This document shows positions 26,001 to 55,888 of a stretch of 64,000 nt of DNA, one piece after another. The notes below the pieces were generated by a model, which saw only the letters and a program-made list of their open reading frames with translations, ran no database searches and was not told where the DNA came from. This DNA comes from Candidatus Obscuribacteraceae bacterium (GTDB lineage: Bacteria; Cyanobacteriota; Vampirovibrionia; Obscuribacterales; Obscuribacteraceae), in assembly GCA_044229845.1 (NCBI GenBank), contig JBGASG010000003.1, positions 192,001 to 256,000 on the forward strand, read 5' to 3'. A program made the translations under genes and the position numbers. Positions within the stretch are counted from its first letter, which is position 1. Every line of letters starts with the position of its first letter.

Positions 26001-26879
26001 GCCGGAGTCCCTTGCCACGGCAGTGTAATCCGGTTTCCATCCCTTGTCGTCGGCGGTCACGCCATAGTCTGGTTTCCACCCCTTGTCACCGGTGGACACA
26101 CCAAAATCCGGCTTCCATCCTTTGTCACCGGCAGCGGTGGCACTATTCACCACACCGGCCTTATCTGAGCCAACTGAGCTATCGCTCAAGAGTTCTTTCG
26201 ACCGAACGATCGCTCGGCTGGAAGTGTCGGCAACATTGTATGCGGTATCAGTGGTCCTCGCCCAGCCTACGGCAACGGAATTGCCTGGCGAGTCCAACGA
26301 CTTGTCGGCAGGCGCGACTCGACTGCCGATTGAGCCCGGTGCATCATCTGCTTTTGTGGAGGTGAGAGAAATATGCTGTGCGCCGGCGTCCACTAGTCCG
26401 GCCGCGCCTTCGACAGGCTTTCCTGGTGCCTCGACAGGGTAAGCTGGGTCGGCATTGTTGACACCAAGACTCAAACGCTCGGCAGCAGACAGAACCGCTC
26501 GTTCGCCTTTAGAACCGGTTGATTCGGGTTCAACGCGTTTTCCAGGAGCCGGTGACAGCACAACTGAGACACTATCATCGTTCGAAGCGCGCAAAAGACC
26601 CGTCAATAACGGAGAGACTAGTCTTGTGTGTGTCGGCTGCGAAGTTTGCGAGTCACTCGCCGGTTGAGGCGATTGTCCTGGTTGTGGGCCGACTTCAAAA
26701 CCTTGAGTGAGTGTGTGCGACTCTTCATTAGCGGGCAATTGCATTCGCTTTTTAATCGTATCGCTGTCATCAGGACTGCGGAGATCGACACTATCGTGTG
26801 CCGGTCCCGACGATCTAGTTGAGTGCTCGACTGGCTGCTCTGTTTCTTCAGAGTGATGACGTTCTTGTCTTGCGACCAT
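23064..26879 (-). CDS. giant low-complexity protein, paralog B (coiled coil, two LysM-like domains, conserved C-terminal domain)
   Basis: YVIQPGDTLESIA, RRDNVEKILG, ARLGETLNSLARRHP and DLPLPVIKELAHNDL...W..Y. Start set at ATG 26879. Confidence 0.85.
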   Translation of the reverse strand: MVARQERHHSEETEQPVEHSTRSSGPAHDSVDLRSPDDSDTIKKRMQLPANEESHTLTQGFEVGPQPGQSPQPASDSQTSQPTHTRLVSPLLTGLLRASNDDSVSVVLSPAPGKRVEPESTGSKGERAVLSAAERLSLGVNNADPAYPVEAPGKPVEGAAGLVDAGAQHISLTSTKADDAPGSIGSRVAPADKSLDSPGNSVAVGWARTTDTAYNVADTSSRAIVRSKELLSDSSVGSDKAGVVNSATAAGDKGWKPDFGVSTGDKGWKPDYGVTADDKGWKPDYTAVARDSGTGSKGETSSTSYTGWKLDPSPANATSWKVVDAGQTKDVGWLNVADAKPGAYNKVVDNLGSWALNEILQKVDKYFKVDTGNVGSKPVESAIGSNVEKRGWVEKPGADKPGADKGLVPLPGNGPKEKRDDFQKLDSLDVRKPQAFKVDKLDREESTATVKPQPGKVEPIRSKDEAPSKLNLSTKLDLPVKLDLPKKLDLPTKLDWQTKPDLLAKLDLRGKENFVVGQKDLAVESKVDKSLPALKERLPLVSSTKELVQDRPQQIREFQQKLDQLVFIGKPSAESDRRGPQERVDRAVLFIPPHEVRIQARLELLDQTRRTLGESKVENGSRRNEPHEFRVIDRTLKGAGENPQIKREDLPLGRPREGKVEQPGEPRPNGKIEMQLGKKEIDGAKKDAEVGKKSVESKRETVKTEGTETGVKIQIITPKGPGAIAEEDTAKKKGKKLFGEDDEDANLQPPPEETKKKPDDDTPQVVLTQPLSPLENTQEETSSQAQVCEDELDAEERRQRNLAILAASSPNANDPNQSQQSQTNTQASGNGGSSPQIDPSTVLPTIELTDQASTVLPVPVESTVDAISEIEQRYDIEMDAYAAHAATIQAMRERELLGYEMREQEQRQERERLAEERNARRQRELEENDRRMALLAQKRKSAQVASDKIANARVTYVIQPGDTLESIARRMLSDKRLSGLVFDLNRSAIPWRIESGRRYLALKPGLTIQLPNHVDITRYKASKRTTTLPFGYDVMPGTTTPATTHTLPSEQAARQKTRRDNVEKILGPLSSSVDEPAYCIARLGETLNSLARRHPHLQDESLWFLLAEVNNLSQETDAIGRAKARLTRGMKLRLPSSQQILEFRSKQCTPAKTADADATQTTIAETRRDVVCEHVFLDQNIRLLIARDRISMNEVQYSLQIFVADWQCVRSYEESHSGNWIRHQYDRYGAVRSFALDLPLPVIKELAHNDLYGAWEGYVSEYLAISSTKTA

Positions 26880-27080
26880 CAGGATTACCTGCTGAGGCCG
26901 AATGCGGCGATGTGATTCACTCACGCTGCGAGCACGCGCGAAAAGAATCATTTAGTAAGTATGGGGCGGGTGTCAGTACGATTGTACTCACAACGCCGGA
27001 ATTGTCTGCTATCCACAATACATTTCCGGCTCTGCGCACACGAATACGCAGAGAGTTAATCTACTCAGACGAAATCTGTT

Positions 27081-37612: not shown

Positions 37613-37636
37613 AAAAGGACCGGGGGGTCCCCGGTC
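37613..37636 (-). terminator. putative intrinsic terminator after paralog D
   Basis: Minus strand GACCGGGG-ACC-CCCCGGTC followed by CTTTT, overlapping the TGA stop. Confidence 0.55.
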
Positions 37637-40600: not shown

Positions 40601-41672
40601 CATCATCGCGATTGTTGAAGTTGTAGCCGCCCTGAATCTGTCCACTGGCCTTCAGCTGGTCGAGCACGGCGGTGACACCCTGGGTGTGCCCATCAGCAAA
40701 GGTGAGGTTGCCGGTCTTCGGATCGTACTTGGTGGCACCGGTAGCATCCAAAATGGTCCTGGTGAACTGGTTGCCGCTTGGGTAGACCTGAGTATCGCCA
40801 GGCTTCGGTACGACGACTGGTGTGACTGCAGGTGTGTCTGCTTTCACAACCGGTGTGTCTGCCTTCACTACCGGCGTATCAGCTTTGACGACCGGTGTGG
40901 TGCCTGCCGGCGCGGCGGGAGCCTCGTACTGCACTCCGGAACCTTGCTTCCAGGTGAGACTGGCAGCCGGTTGGTCGGCGCCGGCCTGGAACGAAAGTTT
41001 TTTGTCACTCCTGTCGAACGAGAAAGAGGCGCCGTCCTTGGTGGTATAGACGGTCGTGTCTCCGCGGCGTGTGGACTGGACGCCGGTCAAATCGTGCTGT
41101 GCGGCAAATGCTTGAAACTGCGGTTGTTGAACCAGACCTTTCATCACACGGCTGTCGAGACCCTGTGCGAATGCGGCGACACTGCTGTCCGGCGTTGTGA
41201 CCGCGGCACCATCGCTGGTTGCGGCGCCGGCGGGGGCCTTCTCTGCGCGCACGACTGGAGCGCCGGCGATCGGCTCACCGGTCGATGGCTTGATTGGCGT
41301 GTAAGTCCCGTCGGTATTGACCGTCCAGGCTTCTTTACCGCCACGAGCATAGAAATTGGTCACCCCTTCGGCATTGGTGGTCTCGATGCCGCGCACCTTC
41401 TCGCCATTGATCTGCAATTCGGCTCGGCGTGCCAATCCGACGCCCTCACTGGAAGCGACGTCGGTGCGGAAGCCGGCAATGCGATCTTTCAGCTCGGTGT
41501 TGGAGCCGGGCACCTGATTGGTGGGCAGGTCGGCGCGCAATAGCCCCGCTGCCGTCTCGCCTGCCTGCAGGTCGTTGCCGGTGACGGGCTTGTCACGCCC
41601 GAGCTTCTCCACCTTGTTGGGATCGAGAGAGTCGATGTTGGGAGAACCTGGCTTTTGTTCGAGAGGCGGCAT
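37635..41672 (-). CDS. giant protein, paralog D (coiled coil, two LysM-like domains, zinc ribbon, conserved C-terminal domain)
   Basis: YIVKEGDTLESIA, RRENIEKLLG, VRLGDTLKSVSMKHP, CGGC-x10-CPGC and DLPPQAAKELAENDITSNWRVYC. ATG at 41672 has a GAGGA RBS. Confidence 0.87.
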   Translation of the reverse strand: MPPLEQKPGSPNIDSLDPNKVEKLGRDKPVTGNDLQAGETAAGLLRADLPTNQVPGSNTELKDRIAGFRTDVASSEGVGLARRAELQINGEKVRGIETTNAEGVTNFYARGGKEAWTVNTDGTYTPIKPSTGEPIAGAPVVRAEKAPAGAATSDGAAVTTPDSSVAAFAQGLDSRVMKGLVQQPQFQAFAAQHDLTGVQSTRRGDTTVYTTKDGASFSFDRSDKKLSFQAGADQPAASLTWKQGSGVQYEAPAAPAGTTPVVKADTPVVKADTPVVKADTPAVTPVVVPKPGDTQVYPSGNQFTRTILDATGATKYDPKTGNLTFADGHTQGVTAVLDQLKASGQIQGGYNFNNRDDVRNLVQDLRTVNPTTFRPDGGLPGGIKPVDVGVKPVDVSGKPVILDGAGKPIDTGKLVDATGRQIDLGRLTQQDLAKFNPDFAKMTQQDFRNLSQQDIAKMMMQDRMGGGDQMQALRMQQLQMDLQNPQLRAQMLDAMSKIQAGKLDALGPNGQRMADILKDLGLDKSGISLKQLLDNPQGLGKLDALQQQKLANFMDLMQGRTTADGGVPRSPFERLTDFLKVNQQALDKGLTGEGGKAFFLELNKILKDLNTQLGLKPGEGLTVADIMGRRMQDGRLAAELGLLPGQLSLKDVRGDMFAVKLNAGETMNVRMLQLQQELMGKNMTPALRDVLNQILNPSALQQTTLRTSELGMAAQLTGKPIDVLIQGVRQLDQGAIKDAAASTLLSQITRDMGLKDAGTAGILGGKEFNAALKLDPTAIKVDGAAKAQADMAAALGQLGMRVDPSLAGIKDVGLNPLNPLDMATAKEQSAAAMKALEEEQAKQKKKKEEEEEEARLDKEEQQAKDAALAALIAAKKRQELKEKEEQEKAQEKDKKEPERRTKYIVKEGDTLESIASKMLRDKRLAALIYEINKEVIPVIQRKGRDVVALRPKMVIWLPTTQEIREFRGRLVAGGGVKLDFGEASKKLTAEEELTAKFGENWDGEQGGKNAPAATGEDLEDLAADAVAAAKKRRENIEKLLGPLSGAKQEAGSRSTYVVRLGDTLKSVSMKHPLLQDVGLWKLLAEVNDMTARTDEKGVPQAALRRGMTIAIPTAEEVAAYKARTVGGDRKTNVYASGPHDLKTKNCGGCGRATIASASICPGCFRSFDEEVKLAPNTVAQTRPAAAAGALAGGGAATEPVSPSAATSGPETQPMMRDDRTRVVRSDTTSGDGPTTQIAASVDEGPTDTVQISEQVRVSRHGEVELHGLKLRLEMRLTGTYWLPVLGYEIFEDVALRHEYNADGSRRTVRIDLPPQAAKELAENDITSNWRVYCDKFASTAGAPRP

Positions 41673-41810
41673 GGGCGATCCTCGTGATTTCTGCGACGTG
41701 GACTCCGGGGCCGGAATTGCCCAAGAATCAGCCGCGAAGGCAAGCTGGGTGGCAAAATGAGTAGTAAGGGGGACAATTGCGGCTGCGAATGCGGCTAGCA
41801 AACCGCCAAA

Positions 41811-41839
41811 ATGATAACTTATTAAGAAACGCTTGTCAA
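41811..41839 (-). promoter_or_regulatory. sigma70-type promoter upstream of paralog D
   Basis: Minus strand TTGACA-17 bp-TATCAT. Confidence 0.7.
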
Positions 41840-42000: not shown

Positions 42001-42906
42001 CTACTCCGGCGACGCATCCGGCACTGGAGCCGGAGCAGCGGCAGCATCGGGATTGTCCGAAAGCTCCGGAAAAACTCCCAGTTCGCCGTCGTGGGTTCGC
42101 ACTCTCAACTTGTAGACAATGTCGGTGGTGACGCAGCGTCCCTGCAGATAAAGCCGGCAAATGTTGCCGGATCCGTCGAAGAAACCCACATAGTGGCGCT
42201 GGGTCCCCTCGGGAGCCTTGTCTCCCAGGTAATACAGCGCGCTGCCACGAAACTTCACCCCAAGAATTTTGCGTCGCTCCCCAAGTTCGTTAAGCAAGAT
42301 ACCGCGGTCATCTTCGCGAATTTCGATGGACTCCATCGGCAGATCGTCGGAGAGAGGTTTTTCCGGGGGACGAATCAAAAGGTCGTCGTCATCAGTAAGT
42401 TCGACGATAGGAGCCGTTCGCCCCGCCGCTGAAAACAGCCGTCCTTGATCGACAAACACGATGTCTCCCAACTCCTGAACGCCCAGTTCATCAGCCAGAC
42501 TGAGCGGTCCGACTACCTCGTCTTCGTCGTCTCCCCAGGAATCGGACTCTTGCACCCCCGGCGCGGAGTCGTCGGCTTGCGGCTTCTCATCGACAATCTC
42601 GGCATCATAAAGGTCTGAGGAGCGCTGCTGCTGCTCGCCACCTTGCTCACCGTCCTCATCCTCGTCCTCGTCCTCGTCCAGATAGTCTTCTGGTCGAACA
42701 GACACCTCATCGTCGTCGTCATCGAAGTCGGCGTCTTCCGGCGCAGCAACTGCTACTGCCGGCTGTTCGTCCTCTTCATCCGGAGTATTCGGATCGCTGG
42801 TGCTGGGATCGGTGGAGTTGGCAGTAGAAGACTGTGCTTCGTCGTCCGCGTTTTGAGTAGCGGGAGCCGGCTGCTGTCCTCGATAGCGTTCACGCCTAGC
42901 CGCCAC
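42001..42906 (-). CDS. highly acidic hypothetical protein with C-terminal globular domain
   Basis: Asp/Glu-rich N-terminal half. The GTG start overlaps the end of the upstream ATPase gene by 11 bp. Confidence 0.75.
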   Translation of the reverse strand: MAARRERYRGQQPAPATQNADDEAQSSTANSTDPSTSDPNTPDEEDEQPAVAVAAPEDADFDDDDDEVSVRPEDYLDEDEDEDEDGEQGGEQQQRSSDLYDAEIVDEKPQADDSAPGVQESDSWGDDEDEVVGPLSLADELGVQELGDIVFVDQGRLFSAAGRTAPIVELTDDDDLLIRPPEKPLSDDLPMESIEIREDDRGILLNELGERRKILGVKFRGSALYYLGDKAPEGTQRHYVGFFDGSGNICRLYLQGRCVTTDIVYKLRVRTHDGELGVFPELSDNPDAAAAPAPVPDASPE

Positions 42907-45900
42907 CGCCGCCTTCTCCTCCTCCGCCTTCCTGTCCCTCGTTCTGGAAGTTTTCCAGAGCTGTGCGGACTTTGTGCAAGAGTACCAGCTGAGCGTCGGT
43001 CGAAAGCTGCTGATCTTTGATCAAGTGAACAGCCAGGCAGTAAGCCAGATCGAGATCGCCCTGACCGATCATGCGTTCGGTAAGCAATCTGCAGAACCAT
43101 GCTGCCGAATCGGAAGCCGATGAATCTTTGCGGTTGATGGAAGAGTTGAAGTCGAATTTGATCTTCGGATCGCGAACGATTTCCGAGACTTCGAAGCGAT
43201 AAATGCATTTAGATGTGCACGGACCACAGGTGGGGTGCGGACCTTGATCGCGCTTGTGCAATTCGATGAAGTCGTCACGCCACTCGCGCAATACTGAAAT
43301 ATCGAGGCGGCGGTTGACTTCACTTGGTTGAAATGCTGGTCTCAAAAGGTTCAACCAGCGCAGATGCTGCTCGCGCACCTGATCATAGAACCAGTAGTTT
43401 TCTTCGCCCTTGCGCTCGAAATAACGTTCAGTCGCCTGAGTAAGAGCGCACCAGGTGATACCGGTGAGATTACCGGAACGGGCACGACCGCCGATCACCC
43501 GCTGAATCTCGTGGATGATCTGAGCGCGGAAGTGCACCAGTTGCGTGAGATCCTTCAGCGTCGAAAGCACATAGCGGTTATATACTTGCCGGAATAGAGT
43601 ATCGTCAGCCACCATCACCGCCGTGTCGAGAATGGCGGAATCGCAGCGATGCAGGCAGAACTTACAGCCCATATGGCGGTCGAAGTTCTTGACGATCTCC
43701 AGTCCGGCCATCGCTTCCCGCACCACCTGATCAGACTCGTGTGGTGTCTCCGGCGGTGGCACAGAAGCCGTCTTGTCATACATAATCGCCAGATGGAAAG
43801 GTGTCTCCATCTTTTCCGCATACACGATGGCGCGTCCTTGCCCGAGCGCAGTCACGTGGCGCTTCTGAATATCATCAAGGTTCATGGCACCACCCATGGA
43901 GTCGCGGTCGTCGGTGGCCACGATGCGGTGCATAACCTTCAAGTTCGTGTTTTTCAGCGCTTCCGGAGCCAGTTTGTTGGGGATCTGGTCTGCGATGATA
44001 AAGCCCTGACCATATGAACGAATTTCTGCCAGCATGTTGGTGAAGAATTCCACCGCTTTACCGGCCGGGTTGGCACTTTCCGCGCTCTGCGAAGTAGGCA
44101 CGTTCTTCAAAAGACGGTGAGCCTCTTCAATCAGCATGACGTGCTGCAAGTTATCGTGCGGTCCCAGTGATTCACGGTATTCGTAAAGGAAGACGAGAAT
44201 CATACCCATCAGGAATGACTTTTCAGAGTCTTCCGACACCATCTTGAGCTCAACGACCGTCGGTCTGCCGAATAGAATTTCAGGCGGGATAGATCTCCTG
44301 GTGTTGAGCATCTGCCCTTTACCACCAATGAGCAGCGAGCCGATACGGGCTTTCAGCGCAGCCTGCACGTCAGGTCCGATTCTCTCCGAATATCCGAATG
44401 ATTCGGTAATCGGGTCGATGATTTCGAACAAGTCTTTCATGGTCGGATAAATCTCGGGCGGACAGTCCGGATCACCGACGTTGATGCCTGGCGGCAGGCG
44501 ACGATTCTTGTTTTGCACAAGGTCCCATCCGCGCACACCGTAGATGGCGTTCAAAGCCTTTTCCAACACCTGCGGCATTGGTGAATACATTTCAAAAGAT
44601 GCGTTAAACACAGACTTCAAGGCATCAAGGTGAGTCTGTACTTTCACTCCTTTCATGATTTCAAATGGGTTGAGGCGGAATGGTGATACCGTTTCATCCC
44701 CCAGAGAAAATGCCTGACCGTGTCCTTTGAAGGTCTCGGACATTAGCATCATGTGCCGATATTCTGATTTCGCCGGCTCGATCACCATAAACGGGATCTT
44801 GTATCGCCAGAGCTGGTTGAGCAGATAGAAACACGTGTTAGTTTTACCGCCGCCGGTCACCCCGCAGACAATGGTGTGTTTTTGCAGCGCATCCACATCG
44901 ACATAGTAGAGGTTGCCTGTGTCCATGTTCTTATCGAGGATGTTGCCGATGGCAATTACCCTGGTTGGATCTTTCGGCGGAATCTCGGCGAGCGAAAATT
45001 CAGCAGATCGGCGAATGCGGAAGCCAGGCATTTCGCTCTTCGGTAAGTGGCAAAACGCTGACAGCATTCGGGAGTTGAGTGGTGACACAAATGTATAGCG
45101 CAGCAGATCTTGCACCGTGTCGCCCTGACGCTTGTTAGACAACAAACCGAATTGTTCGACGTGCGGCTTCAAGCCCGGCAGCTGGTGCGTGCGCAATGGT
45201 GTCGGACGACTTTGTTCGTCGGTGTAGATAGCGCGAATCAAAGACTGCAGTCGCACAAAGACAGACTGATCCGGTGCGAAGTAATAAACGCCGACCTGCC
45301 ACATTCCGACTGCGGTACCCAGCTGCACGTGCTTCAGATAGGCATCTTGCAACTCTAAGTAGTACTTGATGCGCCGCTTTTTCTCAGGGTCTTCTTGATC
45401 TTGAGCTCGCTGAATCTGATCAACAATGGCAAACTCTTCCTGGCTGACCAGGCGCTGCGGAATTGGCGCCGCCAGAAGCAAGATGCCGAACTGGTTGCCC
45501 TGCAAGCCGTTCGCGACACGCTCAATCTGCTCAGACTCCATGGTGCTGTCGATAGAACTCTTCAGCGAAGGCACGCCGGTAACGATGCCGGTGTAAGTCG
45601 CCAGAGGCGAGATCATGGAACGAATCGCATCGCTGCTGAAAGGCTCCGCGTGAATATCTACGCCGTTGTAGACGCTATGGAGCAGCGACCGCAAAGTCGT
45701 GTAGGGCAGATTAGGATCTTGCTGCGGTTTGCTGCCGTTGCCGTTGGTTTCTTGAAAAACGGGCGGTGACATGCCCATGTAGTAATTGACGCCGGCTTTG
45801 TTGCCGATCACCAGATACGCGATGTTAGCTTTCTGCGCGTGCAAGCCGGTGAGGGCATCTTCCATAACGTATTGCCGCTTGGGCAGTTGGTTAGGATCGT

Positions 45901-46114
45901 TATTGGCTTGCGGCTGTTGTTGTTGCTGCTGTTTTTCCCGTTCTATGTCCCAGGATCGCAATACGCCATCGATGCGTACGAATGTCAGCCCGGGCACTCG
46001 CCAGCTCTCGAATGCTGCCGGATCTATAGGTTGACCCTCCAGCGCATCGAGATCATAGCGGCGCAAGTCCGCTATCTTCTCGTCCCAAATATTTCGACTA
46101 GGTGCCTGTGTCAT
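42896..46114 (-). CDS. HerA/VirB4-like (FtsK-HerA superfamily) ATPase with C-terminal Cys-rich domain
   Basis: HTIVCGVTGGGKT Walker A, VIEPAKSEY, LNPF, MLIEEAH Walker B, EIRSYG Arg-finger motif and IADQ. Two CxxCxxxC motifs. No TM helix. Confidence 0.9.
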   Translation of the reverse strand: MTQAPSRNIWDEKIADLRRYDLDALEGQPIDPAAFESWRVPGLTFVRIDGVLRSWDIEREKQQQQQQPQANNDPNQLPKRQYVMEDALTGLHAQKANIAYLVIGNKAGVNYYMGMSPPVFQETNGNGSKPQQDPNLPYTTLRSLLHSVYNGVDIHAEPFSSDAIRSMISPLATYTGIVTGVPSLKSSIDSTMESEQIERVANGLQGNQFGILLLAAPIPQRLVSQEEFAIVDQIQRAQDQEDPEKKRRIKYYLELQDAYLKHVQLGTAVGMWQVGVYYFAPDQSVFVRLQSLIRAIYTDEQSRPTPLRTHQLPGLKPHVEQFGLLSNKRQGDTVQDLLRYTFVSPLNSRMLSAFCHLPKSEMPGFRIRRSAEFSLAEIPPKDPTRVIAIGNILDKNMDTGNLYYVDVDALQKHTIVCGVTGGGKTNTCFYLLNQLWRYKIPFMVIEPAKSEYRHMMLMSETFKGHGQAFSLGDETVSPFRLNPFEIMKGVKVQTHLDALKSVFNASFEMYSPMPQVLEKALNAIYGVRGWDLVQNKNRRLPPGINVGDPDCPPEIYPTMKDLFEIIDPITESFGYSERIGPDVQAALKARIGSLLIGGKGQMLNTRRSIPPEILFGRPTVVELKMVSEDSEKSFLMGMILVFLYEYRESLGPHDNLQHVMLIEEAHRLLKNVPTSQSAESANPAGKAVEFFTNMLAEIRSYGQGFIIADQIPNKLAPEALKNTNLKVMHRIVATDDRDSMGGAMNLDDIQKRHVTALGQGRAIVYAEKMETPFHLAIMYDKTASVPPPETPHESDQVVREAMAGLEIVKNFDRHMGCKFCLHRCDSAILDTAVMVADDTLFRQVYNRYVLSTLKDLTQLVHFRAQIIHEIQRVIGGRARSGNLTGITWCALTQATERYFERKGEENYWFYDQVREQHLRWLNLLRPAFQPSEVNRRLDISVLREWRDDFIELHKRDQGPHPTCGPCTSKCIYRFEVSEIVRDPKIKFDFNSSINRKDSSASDSAAWFCRLLTERMIGQGDLDLAYCLAVHLIKDQQLSTDAQLVLLHKVRTALENFQNEGQEGGGGEGGGGG

Positions 46115-46263: not shown

Positions 46264-49200
46264 TCAAGCCGGAGATTCTGCCAGTTCTTTAGACTTCTTG
46301 TTCTTGTCTTTCTCCTTTTGAGTTTTTGGTCGATTGGCGTAGATCTGATCGATCAAGCTGCGGTTGATGTCCTTGTCGGCGACGTCTTTGAAATCCGGAG
46401 ATTGCATATTGAAGACGCCGGCTACAGTGCCTACTCTGTAGCAGAAGTACGTCCGCTCCTCTTGACCCACTACGCGGTCGATGTTGAGTTTTTCTTCGTC
46501 TGAAATAAGTTCGAACTGTGGTGAAGTATTGACCTTGTTGAAGATGTTCTGAATGGTCTGGTGCTTTACTTTACGACCGTCCACACGGAACATTTGAGGT
46601 CCTAACATATCGCCGTCCTTTTTAGCCAGCGCGAAGATGCACATGGTGCCGGTGTTGATTACTACCTGGTTGCGGTAGTCTTCCGGCAGACCTTGCAAAG
46701 TCTTGGTGGCTGCGATCAGACCGATCTGAAACTTTTTCGTTTCGCTGGTGAGCGCATCGAAAGTTTCTTTTTCAATGAATGAATCGAATTCATCGAGATA
46801 CAACGCAGTCGGCCGGCGCTTGTTGGAGTTTTTCAGCGACAGCGACAGGGCGGCCTGCTTCAAGCCGCTGACGATCAAAGAACCGAGCAAGTTGGCGTTC
46901 TGGTCCAACTGCCCTTGCGGTATTTTGACGAACAGAATCGACTTGTCGTTGATGACGTCCCGCAGGCTGAGGTCACCTTTAGCCTTTGTGAGAATCGGAC
47001 GAATACGCGGGTCACCAAGCATTGGCTGCACGCGGTTGAGAATCGGCTCGATCCAGTTCAACCATTGATCTGTACGGGCGAGGCGCTTGTAGTTGTTCCA
47101 CGCGTCTATGAGTGTGATGTACTCGGCGCGCTCGTTCTTCATGCGCTCGACCTTCTCCAACAGCACATCGCGAAAGTCGTTCTCCGCCAGCAAGGTGGGC
47201 AGGTCGGTGAGGGTACGCCCGTTAGCCATGAGCAAAATAGCGGCGTTGCGCAAAATGTTGGCGGTCTGCTGGTTCCACTGGCTCTGCGAACCAGGCGGTT
47301 CCGTATATATGGCTTTGAATCCGAACACGATTGCCGAAGCTGCGTTCTGCAGGTCGCCGTCTTCAGGAAACTCAAGCGGGTTGTAGCCAATCTGATGATC
47401 GACATCGCCGAAAGTCGGGTCGATTACAACAATCCGCTTGGCCATGTCGCGTCCCTTAGGATGAGAAGCGACCCAATCCAACAACAGATCTACCAGTCCG
47501 CCGTCGGAGTCGACCAGCACCACTGCGCGGTCAGCCGCTGCCATATCGTGAGCAATCATAGACGCCATCATGCGGCTCTTGCCTTTGGCAGCGCCGCCCA
47601 GGATCAATATGTGGGGATTCTGCTCGCGAACATCCGGCGGCATAGACAGCGTGCGCGGTGTGTAAAAGCTGAAGATGTTCCAGTCGACGCGGCTGCCGAA
47701 AGGCACGCCTCCGGGCTTCAGCCCGCGCCCAAATTCCCGCACCATCTTGGTGTGCTGCGCCTGGAACTGAGAAGGAATGTATTTCTTCTTCGCCCAGATG
47801 TTGATCATGCCGGATGGTCCGAACAGTTTCAGTGAAAGCATAGCCAGCAGGGCACCGATGCCGATGATGCCCAGGGCGACGTTGAGGAAGAACTGGTGCA
47901 TCTTCTTCGGATCTTTGCCGATGTCATCCATATTGACGCCCTTGCCGCCACCGGCACCGCCAGTATTGATTGGAATCTGGCCGCTGGCAATCTGCGTGCC
48001 GGTTGGTCCGGCTCCGGGCTCGAAGCTCTCCTGCATAAAGCCTTTGAAATCACCGACGAAGGTTTGAATCTGTCCGCGCCAGCCGAAGCCTACGCGCTTG
48101 GTGTACTTGTAGGCACCACGGAACAATGGAGCCTCTCGGGTCTGTTCATTCCCGGGCGTGATATTGGCGATGATGGCAATCGGTTTGCCTCGCGCCTGTT
48201 TATTTTCGTCGACGTACTGTTTGCCCAGTTCCATCCGTCCATTTTTGTAGGTGCCGTTCACGAAGAACAAACCGAAAGAATCCATGCCCTGTCCCTGGAC
48301 CTGTTCGCCGTTTTGCACCAGCGTCAGGTCGCCCTGGACAGATTTGCCTGCTGCCGGTCCGGGCCCGGCCGTAGCCGCCTTTGCAGGTCCCATGATCGTC
48401 TTCCATTTGCCGCCGACGTACTGTCCGCTGGACTGGCCGCCACCGCCTCCTCCAAACGGATTTGGAAATCCGCCAGCGTTGCTGCTTGTGCCGCTGCTCG
48501 GCATAGTGGGGTGCTGCTGCCCGGCATTAGAGATTGATTGTCCGAGTGAACCAAATACGGTGCTGAGAATTCCGAGCACCGGTGCCACTACCATGAATAT
48601 AACGATGCCGGCCGTCATCACGGTCTGCATCTTCATGGGTATGCCGAAAAGGCTGATCGTCTTGTCTTCGGTGACGCGATCTTCAAGACGCGGACGGCGC
48701 TTCGGCTTCTTATCCTTTTCTTCTTCATCTTCGTCGTCGTCATCTTCATCTTTGACGACGATTTTGTGTTTGGGAGGCTTGCCGTCCTCTTCGAACATCG
48801 AGGACTTGGACTTCGATTTGACCGGCTCCAATTTTTCATCGTCGTCGTCGGCAACCACCGGCTTCTTGGCCGGCGGCGGAGCGTCTGTAGTTGCACCTTC
48901 CTTTGCGGCGCGCTGGGCGCGAGCGATTGCCTCGGCAATAATCGAAGGCTGGGCACCGCTCATGGTCTGGTCTAATCCGCCCCCGGTGGTCGGACCGCCG
49001 GTCGGGCTGCCCGCACCGGCAGGCGCGCTGACAGCCGGGGCAGACGAATTTTGCGAGAAAGGACTGGCTGCTGGTTGTGATGATCCCTGAGAAAAGAAAT
49101 CTGCGCCGGAATCGAAGAAAGAGCTGTTGTTGGCTGGAGGAGCCGCCACAAAGGGAGCCGGCGCCTCGACGGGCGCCGCGACAACCGGTGCCTCAGTTAC

Positions 49201-50577
49201 GGGAGCGGCAGCCGGTGCCGCAGCCGATTCGGTGTTGACACTGTCAGTAGTGGCAGGCTCGGTGGTTGCTCCGCTGTCAGCGGCAGGCGCTGGATCGCCG
49301 GGCTTGACACCAAAAGGCAAGAACGCTGAATCATTACCGCTGGACGGTGGTGCACCAGCCGGCGCTCCGGCAAAGAAATCGCCTTTGGTCTCGGACAGTG
49401 GCTGCGTGATTGGACCGGTGGCCACTTGATTGAGTCCGCCGCCGCCAATCTGCCCCGGCCCGGTCACCACCTGATTGGGTTGCGACATTGTCTGGCTAGG
49501 CGGAGGCAACGCGGGAGCACTGGCGACCGATATGGTCGAATGCGGCTGGCTGGCGGCTGCCAGCGCCACATTGCTGGCCGGCTCGGCTATAAAAGATGCG
49601 ACCTGTGACTGGTCGGCGGCTGCCGGATTGGGAGTCGTCTCCGGTTGGGCAGCATCCGGCGGTTTATCAGCGATCGAATTCGACTGTCCGCTGTGGAAAA
49701 GCGCCCCAGCAATCGCAGCGGCGGCTGCACCGGCAGCAAATCCGCTCGCCGCGGCAGCCAGCGGAGGAATAGATGCGGACTGGTTGATGCCACCAACCGG
49801 AGCGATTGTACCGACTGGAATCGGTCCGCCTATAGGCAAGTCAGACACCGATTCATCCGAGTCAGCGTCCGAGCTGCCACCGTCGATGGTCGGTTTGATT
49901 GGCTCGGGTTGCGGCTGCGGAGCCGAATCATCCGCGGAGTCTGCCGGCATCGCTTCTTGCGGCAAAGCAAAAGAATTATCGGAAACAACCAATTTGGGCT
50001 TCTCCGATTCAGGCATGAGAGTCATGGGTTGGGCTACAGAAGCAGCCTCAGCGGCGAACTGCTCAGCAACCGGCTCCAACGAAATCAAACCCGATACGTC
50101 CTGGGCACCGCCAGTCGTTCCCGGAATTAGAGAAGCTGCACTGCCCAGGAGACTGCCTAGTTTTGATTGCGCTGCCGGCGGCACCGGCTCAGGCGGTGGA
50201 GGCGTGGCGATCGGACGTCCGGTGGCAAAGTCTATTTCGGTCGGTTGCGGCGGAACAACATTGATCGGGGCAGCGTGCGGCGAGCCCCAGGTGTTGGCGG
50301 CGGCGGCGTGTCCGTTGCCATTGCCGTTGCCATTGCCGTCCTCACCTTCTTGCATGTAGCTGTGTTGCGTATAGAGATTGCGGTACTGGTAACGGTTTAC
50401 AGCTTTTTCTAAAACAAGCGGATCGGGCGCGACAGCTACAGCCAGCGGGGCACTGGTATGCGAAATGACCGGCAGCGCGGTTGGCGAGTGCTTCGAGATG
50501 GTGGCGCCGCAATCAGGACAGGCTTTTGCCTTACCCCTGAGAATCACACCACATTGCTGGCAAATGAGAATTTCCAT
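46264..50577 (-). CDS. VirD4/TrwB-like coupling-protein ATPase 1 (zinc ribbon, disordered region, TM, beta-rich domain, TM, ATPase)
   Basis: N-terminal CQQC-x10-CPDC and two TM helices. ATPase motifs HILILGGAAKGKS, VLVDSDG, YNPL, ILRN, EPILNRV and LYLDEF. Confidence 0.87.
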   Translation of the reverse strand: MEILICQQCGVILRGKAKACPDCGATISKHSPTALPVISHTSAPLAVAVAPDPLVLEKAVNRYQYRNLYTQHSYMQEGEDGNGNGNGNGHAAAANTWGSPHAAPINVVPPQPTEIDFATGRPIATPPPPEPVPPAAQSKLGSLLGSAASLIPGTTGGAQDVSGLISLEPVAEQFAAEAASVAQPMTLMPESEKPKLVVSDNSFALPQEAMPADSADDSAPQPQPEPIKPTIDGGSSDADSDESVSDLPIGGPIPVGTIAPVGGINQSASIPPLAAAASGFAAGAAAAAIAGALFHSGQSNSIADKPPDAAQPETTPNPAAADQSQVASFIAEPASNVALAAASQPHSTISVASAPALPPPSQTMSQPNQVVTGPGQIGGGGLNQVATGPITQPLSETKGDFFAGAPAGAPPSSGNDSAFLPFGVKPGDPAPAADSGATTEPATTDSVNTESAAAPAAAPVTEAPVVAAPVEAPAPFVAAPPANNSSFFDSGADFFSQGSSQPAASPFSQNSSAPAVSAPAGAGSPTGGPTTGGGLDQTMSGAQPSIIAEAIARAQRAAKEGATTDAPPPAKKPVVADDDDEKLEPVKSKSKSSMFEEDGKPPKHKIVVKDEDDDDEDEEEKDKKPKRRPRLEDRVTEDKTISLFGIPMKMQTVMTAGIVIFMVVAPVLGILSTVFGSLGQSISNAGQQHPTMPSSGTSSNAGGFPNPFGGGGGGQSSGQYVGGKWKTIMGPAKAATAGPGPAAGKSVQGDLTLVQNGEQVQGQGMDSFGLFFVNGTYKNGRMELGKQYVDENKQARGKPIAIIANITPGNEQTREAPLFRGAYKYTKRVGFGWRGQIQTFVGDFKGFMQESFEPGAGPTGTQIASGQIPINTGGAGGGKGVNMDDIGKDPKKMHQFFLNVALGIIGIGALLAMLSLKLFGPSGMINIWAKKKYIPSQFQAQHTKMVREFGRGLKPGGVPFGSRVDWNIFSFYTPRTLSMPPDVREQNPHILILGGAAKGKSRMMASMIAHDMAAADRAVVLVDSDGGLVDLLLDWVASHPKGRDMAKRIVVIDPTFGDVDHQIGYNPLEFPEDGDLQNAASAIVFGFKAIYTEPPGSQSQWNQQTANILRNAAILLMANGRTLTDLPTLLAENDFRDVLLEKVERMKNERAEYITLIDAWNNYKRLARTDQWLNWIEPILNRVQPMLGDPRIRPILTKAKGDLSLRDVINDKSILFVKIPQGQLDQNANLLGSLIVSGLKQAALSLSLKNSNKRRPTALYLDEFDSFIEKETFDALTSETKKFQIGLIAATKTLQGLPEDYRNQVVINTGTMCIFALAKKDGDMLGPQMFRVDGRKVKHQTIQNIFNKVNTSPQFELISDEEKLNIDRVVGQEERTYFCYRVGTVAGVFNMQSPDFKDVADKDINRSLIDQIYANRPKTQKEKDKNKKSKELAESPA

Positions 50578-50660
50578 CTCGCTCTACTATCCCTTGACAT
50601 CTATGTCCTGATCTGCTTTGCCTTTTGGCTATCGTAGTTATTCCCGTCAGTTCCCCTTTT

Positions 50661-53336
50661 TCACTTTTTATCTTTATATGGCCGGTAGGCTCGAGCCAGC
50701 AACTTCATATCGACACTGTCCCTGTCGATGTCCGGAAAGTCCGGCGCCCGCATGTTGAAGACCCCGGCTACGCTGGAGACCTTGTACCAGAAGAAGGTGC
50801 GGTCCTCCTGTCCGATGATGCGATCCATATTCAGCTTTTCCTCGTCGGCAATCAGGTCATAGTTCGATATGGCTGTGTTGACGGCGTTGAAGATGTGCTG
50901 AATCGTGCGCTGCTTCGCCTGGCGACCGTCAACCCGGAAAATTTGCTTGCCTAGCGCTTCGGCGTCTTTCGGGGCGCAGGCGAAGGCGGCCATGTTGCCG
51001 ACGTTGTTGACCACGTAGTTGCGGTAGTCTTCGGGAATCTCTTGCAAACTGCGTGTCGAACAAATCAGACCCAACCCATAACGGCGGGTGTCGTTGCCGA
51101 CCAGCTGAAACATGTCTTTGTCGATGAAGGACGAAAAGTCATCGAGATAAAGCGAAGCTGGATATCGGCAGGCATCGTCTTCATGAGATAGAGACAGGGC
51201 TGCGTTTTGCACGCAACCGACAACCAATGCACCAACCAGCGAGGCATGATCGCCGAAGCGCGCCCGGGGCAACTTGACGATCACGATGCCTTGATTCTCC
51301 AGCACCGAACGAAAGTCGACGTCGTGTTTGCCACTGGATATGATGGCATTCAGTTTGGGATCGCCGAGGACGGGTTGCAACCGGTTGAGAATCGGCTCCA
51401 CCCAGTCCAGCCACTGTTCGCTGCGGGCCAACTTGCGGTAACGGCTCCAGGACTCGGAGATCATCAGCAGTTCTGCGCACTCGTCTTTGCGAGCCTCGAC
51501 AGTCTGCAACAACAGATCTCGTTCGTCGTTGTCTGTCAGCAGTGTCGGCAGATCACCGAGACTGCGACCGTTCACCGCCAGCAGCAGCAACGCACTGCGC
51601 AAGATGTGCGCCGTCTGCTGCGTCCAGGTCTGCTGTTGTCCTGGTGCAGGCGTGTATATGGCACGAAAACCTGCCACTACAGATGATGCCATATTCTGCA
51701 ACTGGCCGTCGTTCGGCTCGCGAATCGGGTTGAAGGACAGCGGCAAATCGCGCGTACCATCGATGATTCGCAAGCGTTTGGTCAGCTGGGATGCATCCTG
51801 GTGGCAGGCGATATGGCGCACCACCAGATCGGACAGCGCGCCGTCTGGATCGACGATGATCACTGCTCTGTCACCACATTCGATATCATGCACGGCCATG
51901 CCGGCCAGCAAGCGCGTCTTGCCCTTGCCGCTGCCACCGACCGCCAGGATATGAGGATTAGTGATGCGCAAATCGGCCGGCAAGTTGAGCCGGCGGGGAG
52001 CAAGGTGCCAGGGCGCCCAGTCGATGCGCGTCCCCAGCGGCAGCGAACCGGCAGTCAGCCCTCGTCCATACTGCGAAAGCCATTTGTTTTGATCGCCCTT
52101 GTGACGAGTCGGCACATACTGCTTGCGACTCTTTATATTGATATAGCCGTTCGGTCCGAATATTTTCACCGAGGCGCCGATCAGCCCGAAGCTGAGCAGC
52201 AAAAAGCCGAGCAGCGACTTCAAGAACAGATCGCGCAACCAGTCGCCCGAGGGAGGATGCACCAGCAAGTAGAAGAAGTCGCGACGATTCGCTTCCCAGG
52301 TGCCGCGACCGCCGGACATGATCCAGCCGCTCAGGCGTCCCTCGCTCAAGTGTCCCTGTCCATCAAATCGCAGTCCGCGCTGTCCAGGAACCAGCGATCG
52401 TTGACCGAGCGAGACACTGCCATTATCGAGGGCAATGCCGGACAGTCCATCACCGCCCGCCGACAGGGGTGTGCCGGTCAGTCCGGTGCCGCGCCGCTGC
52501 AGGTGCACGAAGAAACTGCGCGTCTTGACGCCCAGCGTCGTATACTGGACCTGCCAGATGCCTTCATCACTGTAACCGCTCAGTAGCGGCGTCTGCGTGG
52601 CTGCTATCAGCATGACGGCGGCCAGGACGGCGGCGCCGAAGACATAGAGCTGACGGGCCGAGGGTACTCCGGCTGACGCAAATTTAGCGCTCTGTCGACG
52701 CTTGCGCGCAGCTTTTGTGGGCTCAGGCAGGACGACTGCCGGCTCTTGCTCTGCAGATCTCGTGAGTCTTGCTACCACCTGTGGTGAGTCGGCGGCGGTC
52801 GATTTTGCCACCGCCTTTGCCACTATCGGCGGCGGCGGGTCCGGTTGTTGTTTCGCCACTGCTGGCGGTACCACTGCCGGTGGCGGCGCGGGCGACGGCG
52901 CGGTCTGTTCTGCCACCGCCGGCGGAGCCGGTACGGAGCGCAGGGCCGGTATCATGTTGACAGCGTTGGCGAAAAAGTCGGCAGCCTGCTCGCTGGCTGG
53001 CTTTTCTTCCATGAAAGTGAGTGATTGGATCGGCACGTCCGGTGCCGGTTGCGGCTGAGATTGAGCCCCCGCCACTGAAGCTGCCGGTGCCGTATGAGGC
53101 AGGGGCGACTCAGTCGGGTCGGGGAGCGAAAACGGCTGAGCCTGGACCGCTACCGGAGACACAACGGCGACCGGCGCGGACGGTCGACTCTCGCCGGCTT
53201 TCAGTGGTTGAAGATTGATGTTCGCTCGCGACGATCTGGTCGCAGAAATTGAGGAGACTTTCAGTCCGCATTCGCTGCAGAACTTGTCCTTTTCTCGAAT
53301 TACATTGCCGCAATGGTGGCAAAAAAGGAGGTCCAC
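50661..53336 (-). CDS. VirD4/TrwB-like coupling-protein ATPase 2 (paralog of 46264-50577)
   Basis: CHHC-x10-CSEC and two TM helices. HILAVGGSGKGKT, IVDPDG, FNPI and LYLDDF. Shares the FRVDGR..DEEKLN.DR..GQE.RT..VAGVFNM tail. Confidence 0.87.
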   Translation of the reverse strand: MDLLFCHHCGNVIREKDKFCSECGLKVSSISATRSSRANINLQPLKAGESRPSAPVAVVSPVAVQAQPFSLPDPTESPLPHTAPAASVAGAQSQPQPAPDVPIQSLTFMEEKPASEQAADFFANAVNMIPALRSVPAPPAVAEQTAPSPAPPPAVVPPAVAKQQPDPPPPIVAKAVAKSTAADSPQVVARLTRSAEQEPAVVLPEPTKAARKRRQSAKFASAGVPSARQLYVFGAAVLAAVMLIAATQTPLLSGYSDEGIWQVQYTTLGVKTRSFFVHLQRRGTGLTGTPLSAGGDGLSGIALDNGSVSLGQRSLVPGQRGLRFDGQGHLSEGRLSGWIMSGGRGTWEANRRDFFYLLVHPPSGDWLRDLFLKSLLGFLLLSFGLIGASVKIFGPNGYINIKSRKQYVPTRHKGDQNKWLSQYGRGLTAGSLPLGTRIDWAPWHLAPRRLNLPADLRITNPHILAVGGSGKGKTRLLAGMAVHDIECGDRAVIIVDPDGALSDLVVRHIACHQDASQLTKRLRIIDGTRDLPLSFNPIREPNDGQLQNMASSVVAGFRAIYTPAPGQQQTWTQQTAHILRSALLLLAVNGRSLGDLPTLLTDNDERDLLLQTVEARKDECAELLMISESWSRYRKLARSEQWLDWVEPILNRLQPVLGDPKLNAIISSGKHDVDFRSVLENQGIVIVKLPRARFGDHASLVGALVVGCVQNAALSLSHEDDACRYPASLYLDDFSSFIDKDMFQLVGNDTRRYGLGLICSTRSLQEIPEDYRNYVVNNVGNMAAFACAPKDAEALGKQIFRVDGRQAKQRTIQHIFNAVNTAISNYDLIADEEKLNMDRIIGQEDRTFFWYKVSSVAGVFNMRAPDFPDIDRDSVDMKLLARAYRPYKDKK

Positions 53337-53755
53337 GTGTGCCTCGGTTGTTTAAAAACGCCCCTCATAAAACGATGGTTTTGGATGGTCCGGAGTCTTC
53401 CCCAGGGAGCTTCTCTGACGAGAAGCTGATAAACGCACCCCCGATTGAGTGAGGATGCGGCTTGACGACTTTCTTCCGGTTGCTTCGTGTGAAGGCTCTT
53501 CTTGGTACTAACGATGTTAAGTTAATTTGCCCTAATGGACAGCAGCATGGTACATTCGCCCTTGCCCCTTGTCAAGATGAGCAGCGACTCCGAGGAAAGG
53601 GTTACCAGCTATATACTGTGATGGGTGCAGGGGCGCCGCTTGCGTGGTCCAAATGGCGACCACTCAAAAGTTATCAGGCCGGTTAGTTTCACCTGTGTAG
53701 TGGAACAGATAGATACAGGAAGAAGGCAAAAGGCAGGCTCACTCTCGTTACAAGC

Positions 53756-55888
53756 TTGCCAGACTCCGCCTCGAAGGCGGGGTCAAACAGCAGGGTCCTA
53801 GCAGGGAATTCAGGAAGGAAAAACCGCATGCCGCGGGAGGACAAAGGCACAAGCTCGGCAAGTCCGCTGAAAGATGCTTCTGGTGGAAACGACAACAACA
53901 CGTCGTCACTGGCCGCACGGCGGGCTCGTTTGCGTGGCACGCTGGCACGCGCGACCAGTGCCCAGGATGAGACTTACGAACAAATGCCCGCCCCCACATT
54001 CGGTTCAGAAGGCATGATGAGCGGCGTTGATGAAGCAGCCTCGGCTCCCGAAGCCGCAGTCGGTGCAGCCGACACACCAGATGTATCCGAAGGCGGACTC
54101 GATCAGCCCGGCGGCGGCGGCAGTCAGCCGGCTGCCAACGAAGAGAACGGAGCGTCCAGCATGCCCGCACAAGACCCGCCTCACCAAGACCCCGCACCTG
54201 TCGCACCGTCCAGCGCAGCCGACCCATCCCCATTTTCACAAGATTCCTCACCCTGGGGCGAAGACCCGAATCCATCGCCGGCGCCCAATTTGCTGGCAGC
54301 TTTTATTCCGGCACCGGTGTCATCGCCGCAAGCCTCCTTCACCGCACCACCGCAGTTGCAGCCGCTGGCCGAGGTGCCGCCTCACGCCATCGAACTGTTG
54401 CAGAGCATCGACCAGGCTATGAATGCCTGCGCCACCAACCTGGCCACGTTGCAACGGCTATCCGGCGAACAGACCGATGTGCTCAAGAACTTGACGAACA
54501 CGTTGCAGAATCAGACTCTTTCGCAGATTGGACTCAATCTCAACAGTCTCACCGACTCATTATCTGCTGCTCTCGAGCCGATGAAGGCAATCGGAGAACT
54601 GGTGCCGGCGATGGATCAGTTGGTGACCACGCTGGAAGGCAAGGAAGCTTATCCCCAGCAAGAGAAGATGTCGCAGGACCAGTTGGTGACGAGCCTCGCT
54701 GACCAGCTGTCTGCCGGACTTATAGATCCCTGGACTTTCAGATGCGCCTACATGGCAGTTTATCCGACTGATCACCCGGCTGATTTGCTGCACAGACTGG
54801 TCGAATTGCTCGGCACTCAGAGACTTTCCGGAGATCTCTTCCGGGCAGCGTACGAAGCAGTGCAAGCCGCGGAGCCGCCGGCCGGCGGCGGATCATTTAT
54901 TCCGCCCACTAGAAACCTCGACCCGGCGCAGATAGACGAAACGATCAAAAAGCAACTCGACCAGCTGCAAAAGTCTAACGACGAAATGCGCAAGCGTCAG
55001 GAAGAACGCGAAGCCGAACTGCAGCGGGTGCTGGAAACCAAAGACCGGGAACTGGCCGAACTGCAAGAGAAGATGCAGAAAATTCCCGAGGCAGATCCCG
55101 GCAAAGAAGACGAATATCAGTCTTTGCTCGAAAGCAAGGACATGGAGTTGGTCGAGAAAGAGTCGGAAAACAATATGCTGCGCGCGCAAATGGAAGAGTT
55201 GCGCTCGCAAACAGAAGAGATGGTCAAAGACATGCAGAAGCAGATCTCTGACCTGAAAGTTGCCCACGAAGAATCGGTCGCCAATCAGCCACCAAAGCCG
55301 GTATCAAGCTTCTTCGACAATGCGCCGTCACCGGCTCGGTCCCTTTTCGACAGCGGACCGCAAAAGAGTCTCTTCGATCAACAACAACAGCAGCAGCAGC
55401 AAGCCAATATGGCCACCACGCAGCCGACCCCCGCACCGGCACCGACACCGATGCCGTTGCAGCAAATGGCAGCTGCGCAGATGACACCGCAGCCGCTGGC
55501 ACCGCAAAATCAGCAAATTTCCCAGAGTATGCAAGCGATGGCCCCGCCGGCGCCCAGCGTGTCAGGCGGCATGGCTCCCCCCGTCAATGGCGGCGGAGCT
55601 CCACCCACCGCATCGCCCGTAGTACCACCGTCGGCGCCGGCGCCACCGCCAGCGCCACCAGCACCGCCAACCCGACCTGCGGCCCAGACGGCTACCACTC
55701 CCTTCAGTCAGGGACAGGGCAGCTACGGGAGCGGCGTTCGCGCACAGGTCTTCGAAGTGATTGTTCGCCAAGCTCTCGCTGGAGCGCCCTGGCGCGAAAT
55801 CTGCGCCGGACCGATGCAGGTCAACAACATCACCCCAGATGAAGTGGAAGCAGAAGTCAAACGCCGCCAGGCATTGCTCAACAAGTAG
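53756..55888 (+). CDS. Pro/acidic disordered and coiled-coil hypothetical protein
   Basis: 710 aa with a heptad-rich E/K/Q segment, poly-Q/Pro linkers and a compact C-terminal helical motif (GVRAQVFEVIVRQALAGAPWREIC). Confidence 0.8.
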   Translation: MPDSASKAGSNSRVLAGNSGRKNRMPREDKGTSSASPLKDASGGNDNNTSSLAARRARLRGTLARATSAQDETYEQMPAPTFGSEGMMSGVDEAASAPEAAVGAADTPDVSEGGLDQPGGGGSQPAANEENGASSMPAQDPPHQDPAPVAPSSAADPSPFSQDSSPWGEDPNPSPAPNLLAAFIPAPVSSPQASFTAPPQLQPLAEVPPHAIELLQSIDQAMNACATNLATLQRLSGEQTDVLKNLTNTLQNQTLSQIGLNLNSLTDSLSAALEPMKAIGELVPAMDQLVTTLEGKEAYPQQEKMSQDQLVTSLADQLSAGLIDPWTFRCAYMAVYPTDHPADLLHRLVELLGTQRLSGDLFRAAYEAVQAAEPPAGGGSFIPPTRNLDPAQIDETIKKQLDQLQKSNDEMRKRQEEREAELQRVLETKDRELAELQEKMQKIPEADPGKEDEYQSLLESKDMELVEKESENNMLRAQMEELRSQTEEMVKDMQKQISDLKVAHEESVANQPPKPVSSFFDNAPSPARSLFDSGPQKSLFDQQQQQQQQANMATTQPTPAPAPTPMPLQQMAAAQMTPQPLAPQNQQISQSMQAMAPPAPSVSGGMAPPVNGGGAPPTASPVVPPSAPAPPPAPPAPPTRPAAQTATTPFSQGQGSYGSGVRAQVFEVIVRQALAGAPWREICAGPMQVNNITPDEVEAEVKRRQALLNK

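Follow-up and report, generated by a model that had tools for sequence, protein, structure and literature searches.

Two coupling-protein genes lie side by side in the genome of Candidatus Obscuribacteraceae bacterium (contig JBGASG010000003.1, positions 192,001 to 256,000; this whole stretch of 64,000 nucleotides is called the window below), and each product lacks a catalytic residue which the other one keeps. Do the two proteins, A1 and A2, complete each other's active sites in an obligate hetero-oligomer, as a sequence-only reading of the locus proposed, or does the pattern have another origin? The comparison with known structures and with relatives from the order Obscuribacterales speaks for the latter: the catalytic decay is a trait of the whole family, and the complementary pattern does not exceed chance. 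The reading we favour, with a probability of about 0.45, is that A1 and A2 are pseudo-ATPase adaptors acting with H, a VirB4-like motor encoded next to them, in the export of giant proteins. No description of the cluster was found in the literature listings and abstract openings searched.

Architecture and active sites of A1 and A2

A1 (46264..50577, minus strand, 1437 aa) is the main VirD4/TrwB-like protein of the locus, typical of an order-wide family, and A2 (50661..53336, minus strand, 891 aa) is its paralog, a long-branch duplicate. The assignment is based on domain matches and on the ratio of nonsynonymous to synonymous substitution rates (dN/dS) for both proteins, on a structural model for A1, and on identity to A1 for A2 (48% over 509 columns of the ATPase region). 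Both chains consist of a Zn ribbon, a disordered linker, two predicted transmembrane (TM) helices flanking a β-rich periplasmic domain, and an ATPase-like domain; TM helices and signal peptides were judged throughout by hydropathy scan. The two hydrophobic helices, present in A1 and in A2, correspond to the N-terminal membrane anchor of coupling proteins. The predicted periplasmic domain of A1 (47893..48564, minus strand) lies between the TM helices 653–671 and 896–914. It has no Pfam match, varies within the family and is retained in paralogs devoid of the ATPase domain. A 363-aa protein of genome G000 (C1:481968-483056) carries this domain twice.

A1 matches PF10412 above the cut-off. No significant match for it was found among PDB sequences by phmmer, and a family profile built from 104 sequences was needed to set the register relative to TrwB. 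The model of the A1 domain (predicted local distance difference test, pLDDT, 95.9) retrieves Cag-beta as the top match and TrwB in Foldseek. Its comparison by VIA gives Z 24.9 with TrwB (root-mean-square deviation (rmsd) 3.7, 396 residues aligned), 24.1 with DotL (rmsd 3.5, 358 aligned) and 23.6 with DndH, these top values being tied within ~1. The FtsK/HerA fold together with the all-α domain of coupling proteins is thus present in A1 by modelling and in A2 by its 48% identity.

The motifs quoted in the sequence-only reading for A1, A2 and H are all found in the translations, and the proposed residue equivalence to TrwB holds: besides the Z of the model, the family profile and TrwB align ungapped over a stretch that begins at Walker B and includes the GRK and LQS positions. 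The Walker A motif of A1, GGAAKGKS (residues 994–1001, 47575..47598), contains K998 and K1000; that of A2 is GGSGKGKT (residues 467–474). The Walker B Glu of A1 is E1263 (LYLDEF, 46789..46791), and Asp occupies its position in A2 (D733 in LYLDDF, 51138..51140). The GRK arginine of TrwB, taken to be the Arg375 finger named in PMC9886983, corresponds to K1281 of A1 (ETKKF, 46735..46737) and to R751 of A2 (DTRRY, 51084..51086), where Arg is kept. The counterparts of the sensor-1 Gln are K1292 of A1 (ATKT, 46702..46704) and R762 of A2 (STRS, 51051..51053). All these codons lie on the minus strand; E1263 and K1292 were assigned from the motif and the profile register, K1281 from the motif and the TrwB profile alignment, and the A2 residues from the motif and the TrwB alignment. 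The full catalytic set of Walker B Glu, Arg finger and sensor-1 Gln (the feature set of the clade, including the Gln, is defined in PMC10853773) is therefore incomplete in both proteins, namely E/K/K in A1 and D/R/R in A2.

Relative to the near relative L051, dN/dS is 0.017 for A1, 0.06 for the ATPase domain of A2 and 0.004 for H. The value for A2 rules out that it is a pseudogene; this duplicate evolves fast, but purifying selection still acts on it.

Copy number and catalytic decay in the family

The genome survey covered 41 genomes: the window's own (5.2 Mb, 88% complete), 24 of the same family, 3 of a sister family and 13 of other orders. Matches to the A1 domain were found in 25 of them, that is in the window's own genome, in 21 of the 24 and in all 3 of the sister family, and in 0 of the 13 from other orders. 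The match is single in 18 of the 24 relatives having any, and the 8 high-quality genomes among these 24 are all of this kind. Genome G024 was considered as one without the genes and rejected, as a contig break within the coupling-protein gene explains the gap. The neighbourhood of H was fetched for 78 loci. Forty-nine of these extend to o53, the divergent gene upstream of A2 in the window, so that the intervening genes are fully seen; the other 29 were left out of the copy count. One ATPase-bearing copy is present in 40 of the 49 loci and two in 9. Related genomes are not independent samples.

In the 40 single copies the Walker A Lys (K1000 in A1) and the Walker B Asp are invariant. The column of K998 is Lys in 36 of them. 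The Walker B Glu column contains E in 24, N in 11, D in 3 and C in 2; the Arg-finger column K in 21, D in 9, R in 6, A in 3 and E in 1; the sensor-1 column K in 38 and R in 2. Taken jointly, Glu and Arg occur together in 5 copies, Glu only in 19, Arg only in 1 and neither in 15. By conservation the Glu and Arg columns rank in the lowest 28% and 21% of columns. The canonical VirD4-like outgroup (n = 32) is different, with E in 32, R in 27 and Q in 31 proteins. Trees were built with FastTree and a quick IQ-TREE run, and on the FastTree of 75 rows at least 4 changes are required for the Glu state and at least 7 for the presence or absence of Arg. Since single copies show the same decay next to a fixed Walker A Lys and Walker B Asp, catalytic decay is a family trait and the sensor Lys/Arg is a family signature. 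The earlier observation that the sensor Gln is replaced in both proteins is correct, but the defect is not peculiar to the pair, as Lys or Arg stands there in 40 of 40 single-copy loci. Orthologs occurring singly with canonical motifs had been named as evidence against hetero-oligomerization: the orthologs are indeed mostly single, but their motifs are mostly not canonical.

Two-copy loci bear directly on the idea of split active sites. In its lineage-limited form, A1 lost the Arg finger and A2 the Glu after duplication, and only rings of alternating A1 and A2 would be complete. The register is correct, A1 and A2 are adjacent, co-directional and under purifying selection, the arrangement is geometrically possible, and the pattern is common to L051 and to P0001/P0056. 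Yet among the 11 two-copy loci (the 9 fully seen ones plus L089 and L093) the states are complementary in one only, L051; in the other 10, both copies have Glu and Arg (5), neither has Arg (4), or the second copy is fragmentary (1). Moreover, the state of A1 (Glu without Arg) is the commonest one among single-copy loci (19 of 40), and a rebuilt site would still be without the sensor Gln. A complementary pair would arise by chance in 2–4% of draws from the family's own states, independence being assumed, and over five or six duplication lineages the chance is by our arithmetic roughly 11–24%; the pattern was seen in one lineage. Split sites limited to this lineage are thus quite improbable. As for an obligate hetero-oligomer, its paralogs should co-occur and stay complementary, and in most loci they do neither; because single copies are decayed without a partner and 10 of the 11 two-copy loci are not complementary, the proposal is not supported and is unlikely.

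The diverse members of the family give a more favourable picture of catalysis. Among 69 diverse representatives Glu is present in 60, Arg in 28, Lys in the K998 column in 54 and Lys or Arg at sensor 1 in 67. The loss of Glu is real but confined mainly to a few clades. In the outgroup the K998 column is Ser or Thr in 27 of 32 proteins and Lys in none. These numbers suit the main rival of our reading, according to which A1 is an active homo-hexameric ATPase whose trans Arg finger and sensor Gln were replaced, similarly to Cag-beta, by the cis lysines K998 (P-loop) and K1292 (sensor 1), A2 being dispensable or regulatory. Cag-beta uses the cis residue Arg241, as reported in PMC9886983, and a lysine can serve as an Arg finger (bioRxiv 10.1101/2024.01.26.577026). 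However, K998 is one position off Arg241 of Cag-beta, whose R241K substitution abolishes activity (PMC9886983). In addition, the Glu is exchanged for N, C or D in 16 of the 40 single-copy loci, the entire clade around Obscuribacter phosphatis among them, and the locus is intact there. We regard this rival as serious though unlikely.

Duplication of the coupling-protein gene happened repeatedly. Separate events are recorded by L089a/b (95%), G015a/b (96%) and L127a/b (inside a 100% clade), and A2 forms a long branch, placed weakly (58% support) near other second copies. In ten loci (L062, L064, L065, L066, L088, L092, L109, L115, L116 and L126) a paralog of 550–795 aa without the ATPase domain lies just upstream of H and retains the Zn ribbon, the TM helices and the periplasmic domain. 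There are also detached, further-decayed copies of the domain, some of them fused to Ser/Thr kinases and without catalytic motifs; such copies show reuse of the domain without these motifs. The kinase fusions found away from the cluster are L141:7701-10238 (minus strand), P0101, P0116, P0117, P0134 and P0148. At L092:2570-7050 the main coupling-protein gene lies in two frames (959 + 510 aa), through either a natural split or an assembly error, with the break before the second TM helix.

H, the gene cluster and the favoured reading

H (42896..46114, minus strand, 1072 aa) is a soluble VirB4-like ATPase and the likely motor of the system, according to Foldseek, VIA and its conservation. It has a VirB4-type N-terminal domain, an intact ATPase domain with the motifs GVTGGGKT, EEAH, EIRSYG and ADQ, and a Cys-containing helical C-terminal domain; no TM helices are seen by hydropathy. 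The catalytic residues G/K/T, EE, R699 and Q710 are invariant in all 79 sequences longer than 900 aa, so everything expected of a VirB4 in Walker A, Walker B, the Arg finger and the sensor Gln is intact. In other genera of the order the ATPase domain is 84–93% identical, and loci with copies of H at 85–100% identity come mostly from Obscuribacterales or Melainabacteria. The ten best Foldseek matches of the H model are full-length TrwK/VirB4 chains (TrwK, E 2.6e-12). By VIA, residues 41–803 of H superimpose on residues 37–805 of TrwK with Z 14.9 and rmsd 18.2, the domains being displaced, and the ATPase part on VirB4 (4ag5) with Z 20.0, rmsd 4.5 and 317 residues aligned; for the ATPase part alone DndH is a slightly better match. 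Both the N-terminal and the ATPase domain of VirB4 are thus recognized, in a model of moderate quality (pLDDT 69, predicted TM-score 0.44) with low whole-chain TM-scores. The scores of H against the HerA equivalogs are far under the cut-off. By its modelled fold H is VirB4-like rather than HerA-like. The sequence-only reading had offered, as a second possibility, pseudo-ATPase adaptors powered by a HerA-like neighbour; the adaptors fit the data better than the hetero-oligomer, and the nature of the neighbour had to be corrected. A predicted complex of the ATPase domains of H and A1 scored 0.00 in two runs with controls not folded, and the result is neutral on binding.

With the query used, the N-terminal domain of H was not found in 300 other genomes of the phylum, and the homologue P0190 matched DUF87/HerA_C/DUF8350 clusters only. 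HerA repair or defence systems have NurA, Sir2 or DUF4297 partners; neither Pfam nor NCBIfam matches indicate a nuclease or Sir2 gene among the neighbours scanned (PADLOC was not searched). Relatives on plasmids of Rhodococcus, Streptomyces, cyanobacteria and Acinetobacter are 32–37% identical. None of the five examined has VirD4 as a direct neighbour, and hidden Markov models of o42, o53, the giant-protein module and the coupling protein gave no match near them; a relaxase gene and a gene of the VirD4 family lie no more than ~6 kb from the Rhodococcus relative. The cyanobacterial plasmid relatives L132:5950-13513 and L133:7976-14712 share downstream genes for proteins of ~250–270 aa and 100 aa, a metallopeptidase-like protein and DUF692. 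Upstream, L132 has five small genes (103–125 aa, hydrophobic N-termini, four clearly paralogous) without a Pfam match.

In the window the minus strand encodes, in this order, A2, A1, H, o42 (301 aa) and four giant proteins (1295–3443 aa). The product of o42 (42001..42906) is a small acidic protein with a conserved core of ~180 aa and no Pfam match, its gene overlapping the end of H. Each giant protein ends in a LysM-LysM-DUF7718-like C-terminal module: protein 1 (37635..41801, 1388 aa from a TTG, the true start being likely a later ATG), protein 2 (27081..37412, 3443 aa, with repeats), protein 3 (23064..26951, 1295 aa) and protein 4 (17349..22649, 1766 aa). No signal peptide or TM helix is found in them by hydropathy. 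The giants, especially in their N-terminal parts, are hypervariable and repetitive, and RHS repeats are present in those of one relative, seen in two fetches. On the plus strand o53 (53756..55888), a divergently transcribed coiled-coil protein gene without a Pfam match, stands consistently next to the coupling-protein gene throughout the order. Sigma-70-like sites lie upstream of A2 (53547..53575, minus strand, 10/12) and upstream of the giant array (41811..41839, minus strand, 11/12); both are consensus matches only, and the count in the region of the former is at chance (7 vs 5.4). Contigs from RNA libraries contain pieces of A1 and H in four studies and of A2 in two, such contigs not being proof of transcription.

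All 27 relatives of the order have the C-terminal module of the giants; o53 and, by strong matches, H were found in 25 each, o42 in 20 and the coupling protein in 24. The 13 genomes of other orders contain none of the five families, save two weak ATPase matches to H. In the main family the gene order is largely fixed (selA, o53, coupling protein(s), H, o42, giant(s)), and in many genomes the cluster keeps its chromosomal position beside selA. Of the 78 stretches fetched around H, 67 include a coupling-protein gene, and among the 11 without it 6 end just upstream of H; in 63 of the 78 loci giant genes lie no more than 10 kb from H. Several observations concern neighbouring or related genes. Between o53 and selA the window has a tetratricopeptide-repeat protein (55936-58566, minus strand) with MshE-type motifs for binding cyclic di-GMP, a cyclic-nucleotide-binding domain and DUF4388. 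The C-terminal ~50 aa of o53 (55700-55870) recur in two other genes of genome G000 (C8:439856-440185 and C18:134124-134759). The same genome has a fifth giant (C8:363826-368496), in which both LysM parts are present and the C-terminal domain is missing, beside a transposase-like gene, and more large proteins with one LysM-type module each on C1, C21 and C22.

RHS and LysM domains are characteristic of proteins found outside the cell. The favoured reading, with A1 and A2 as adaptors, is built on observed features: the fold, hydrophobic helices, motif states, prevalence of single copies, conserved gene order and, in the genomes searched, confinement to the order. A1 and A2 would be two copies of a VirD4-derived, predicted inner-membrane protein that probably binds ATP and hydrolyses it weakly or not at all: the P-loop Lys and the Walker B Asp are kept while Glu and Arg drift, which suggests a protein that binds nucleotide and couples little hydrolysis to the binding. 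Members of the family may anchor the machine in the membrane and act as its receptor, while H, presumably in contact with them, would be the motor. The giant leaderless LysM proteins are the likeliest cargo because they bear extracellular-type domains, have no leader and are encoded next door. The split of E/K and D/R would then be incidental drift in two columns loosely constrained family-wide. A2, a lineage-specific duplicate, would contribute mainly a second periplasmic and N-terminal part, because duplicates in other lineages drop the ATPase domain. More tentatively, and with less confidence than in the adaptor role itself, one may imagine an export system of the Obscuribacterales' own. 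It would be a domesticated energy module of a type IV secretion system (T4SS), with an invariant VirB4-like motor, a pseudo-ATPase VirD4-like receptor, giant LysM/RHS cargo recognized by the shared C-terminal module, no known T4SS channel proteins, and receptor duplications diversifying the periplasmic domain.

The search for other parts of such a machine also bears on whether DNA is transported. No VirB6-like polytopic gene occurs in the cluster, no conserved cluster gene in the window having more than two TM helices. The 88%-complete genome has no match to PF05101, PF04610 or PF03524 (VirB3, VirB6 and VirB9), although divergent forms could escape. VirB10-type PF03743 (TrbI-like) gave four sub-cut-off matches, all outside the locus; the three whose regions were inspected are stand-alone-looking proteins with signal-like N-termini. 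VirB8 matched neither in this genome nor in the control genomes. For relaxases PF03432 gave no match in the genome (other relaxase families were not searched), nor did PF06013 for WXG100. VirB4 is described as the signature subunit of all T4SSs, and VirB6 as highly conserved among them (PMC12857230). The cluster would act like a T4SS energy module yet does not belong to the T4SSs by the channel genes tested within it. A VirB4/VirD4 pair that takes up, releases or exchanges DNA, like the archaeal Ced system, with the giants as mere long-term neighbours, would agree with the ancestry of both folds, with a sub-cut-off match of H to CedD (E 8.5e-16, 57.7 bits, cut-off 600) and with H being unlinked from the giants in the sister family. 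Nevertheless, neither a relaxase nor a VirB6-like gene was found, the fixed position beside selA is not that of a mobile or conjugative element, and the giant-protein module has the same order-limited distribution. We consider DNA transfer improbable.

It is also conceivable that nothing is exported across the envelope and that the system serves signalling, scaffolding or conflict in the cytoplasm or at the inner membrane, with the decayed domain used for docking and the giants as intracellular scaffolds. The kinase fusions, the lack of signal peptides in the giants, the channel genes not found and several plasmid relatives of H located beside WYL, GTPase and Hsp70 genes point in this direction. 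The usually extracellular RHS and LysM domains and the hypervariable, repetitive N-terminal parts of the giants point away from it, and a near-invariant H at a fixed locus would be unlike fast-turnover defence genes. This alternative appears very improbable.

Several facts weigh against adaptors exporting the giants. Neither a channel nor an outer-membrane component was identified, which leaves the proposed export without a route, and the LysM scores are weak and partial. Since Glu is present in 60 of the 69 representatives, ATP hydrolysis may persist in many lineages, and Cag-beta, without a trans Arg, is still an active ATPase via Arg241 in Walker A (PMC9886983). The E/K and D/R pattern is retained in L051, and P0001 and P0056 have the same two states. 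The closest plasmid relatives of H lack an adjacent VirD4 and a giant LysM gene, and the neighbourhoods of several are conflict-like. In the sister family (f2) H is multi-copy and detached from the coupling-protein and giant genes, therefore the linkage is not universal. In that family (L137 and L138, G025:C129) three copies of H, two of them in tandem, lie beside large proteins not related to the LysM giants.

The cluster is near-universal in the sampled Obscuribacterales genomes and extremely conserved. If the favoured reading is true, a vertically inherited VirB4/VirD4 pair with a decayed coupling ATPase and no recognizable channel genes would show how far such a module can be stripped and repurposed, and it would be a first candidate for surface building in this little-studied order. 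The family of A1 and A2 is in addition a natural series of Glu/Arg states for asking whether a coupling protein must hydrolyse ATP.

Comparison with known systems

The A1/A2 family resembles TrwB/VirD4, DotL and Cag-beta in the fold of the ATPase and all-α domains, in PF10412 and in two N-terminal TM helices by hydropathy; Cag-beta is similar also in being without a trans Arg finger. In contrast to these coupling proteins, the family has Lys or Arg instead of the sensor Gln, drifting Glu and Arg columns, a long cytoplasmic N-terminus with the Zn ribbon and disordered segment, and a β-rich periplasmic domain, and relaxase and channel genes were not found with it. H matches full-length TrwK in fold and has all catalytic motifs intact. 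It differs from VirB4/TrwK in its extra Cys-containing helical C-terminal domain and in that no VirB3 was found, and the proteins nearest to it in sequence are DUF87 ATPases that stand alone on plasmids of actinobacteria and cyanobacteria.

A functional analogy can be drawn to EccC/EssC of the type VII secretion system, where one active ATPase domain of the FtsK/HerA clade is combined with degenerate ones. The D2 and D3 domains are degenerate and were proposed to be regulatory (bioRxiv 10.1101/2024.01.26.577026), and by analogy they may be a precedent for the adaptor role of A1 and A2. Unlike EccC/EssC, the cluster has separate genes of VirB4 and VirD4 type with one ATPase domain per protein, no tandem multi-ATPase polypeptide, and WXG100 was not found. 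Vampirovibrio chlorellavorus, of the same class, has a T-type T4SS (PMC4451040), likewise a VirB4-based machine in a non-photosynthetic cyanobacterium. That T4SS is complete and of the conjugation type, in contrast to the present cluster, in which none of the channel genes looked for is present and which the sampled genomes of other orders did not show.

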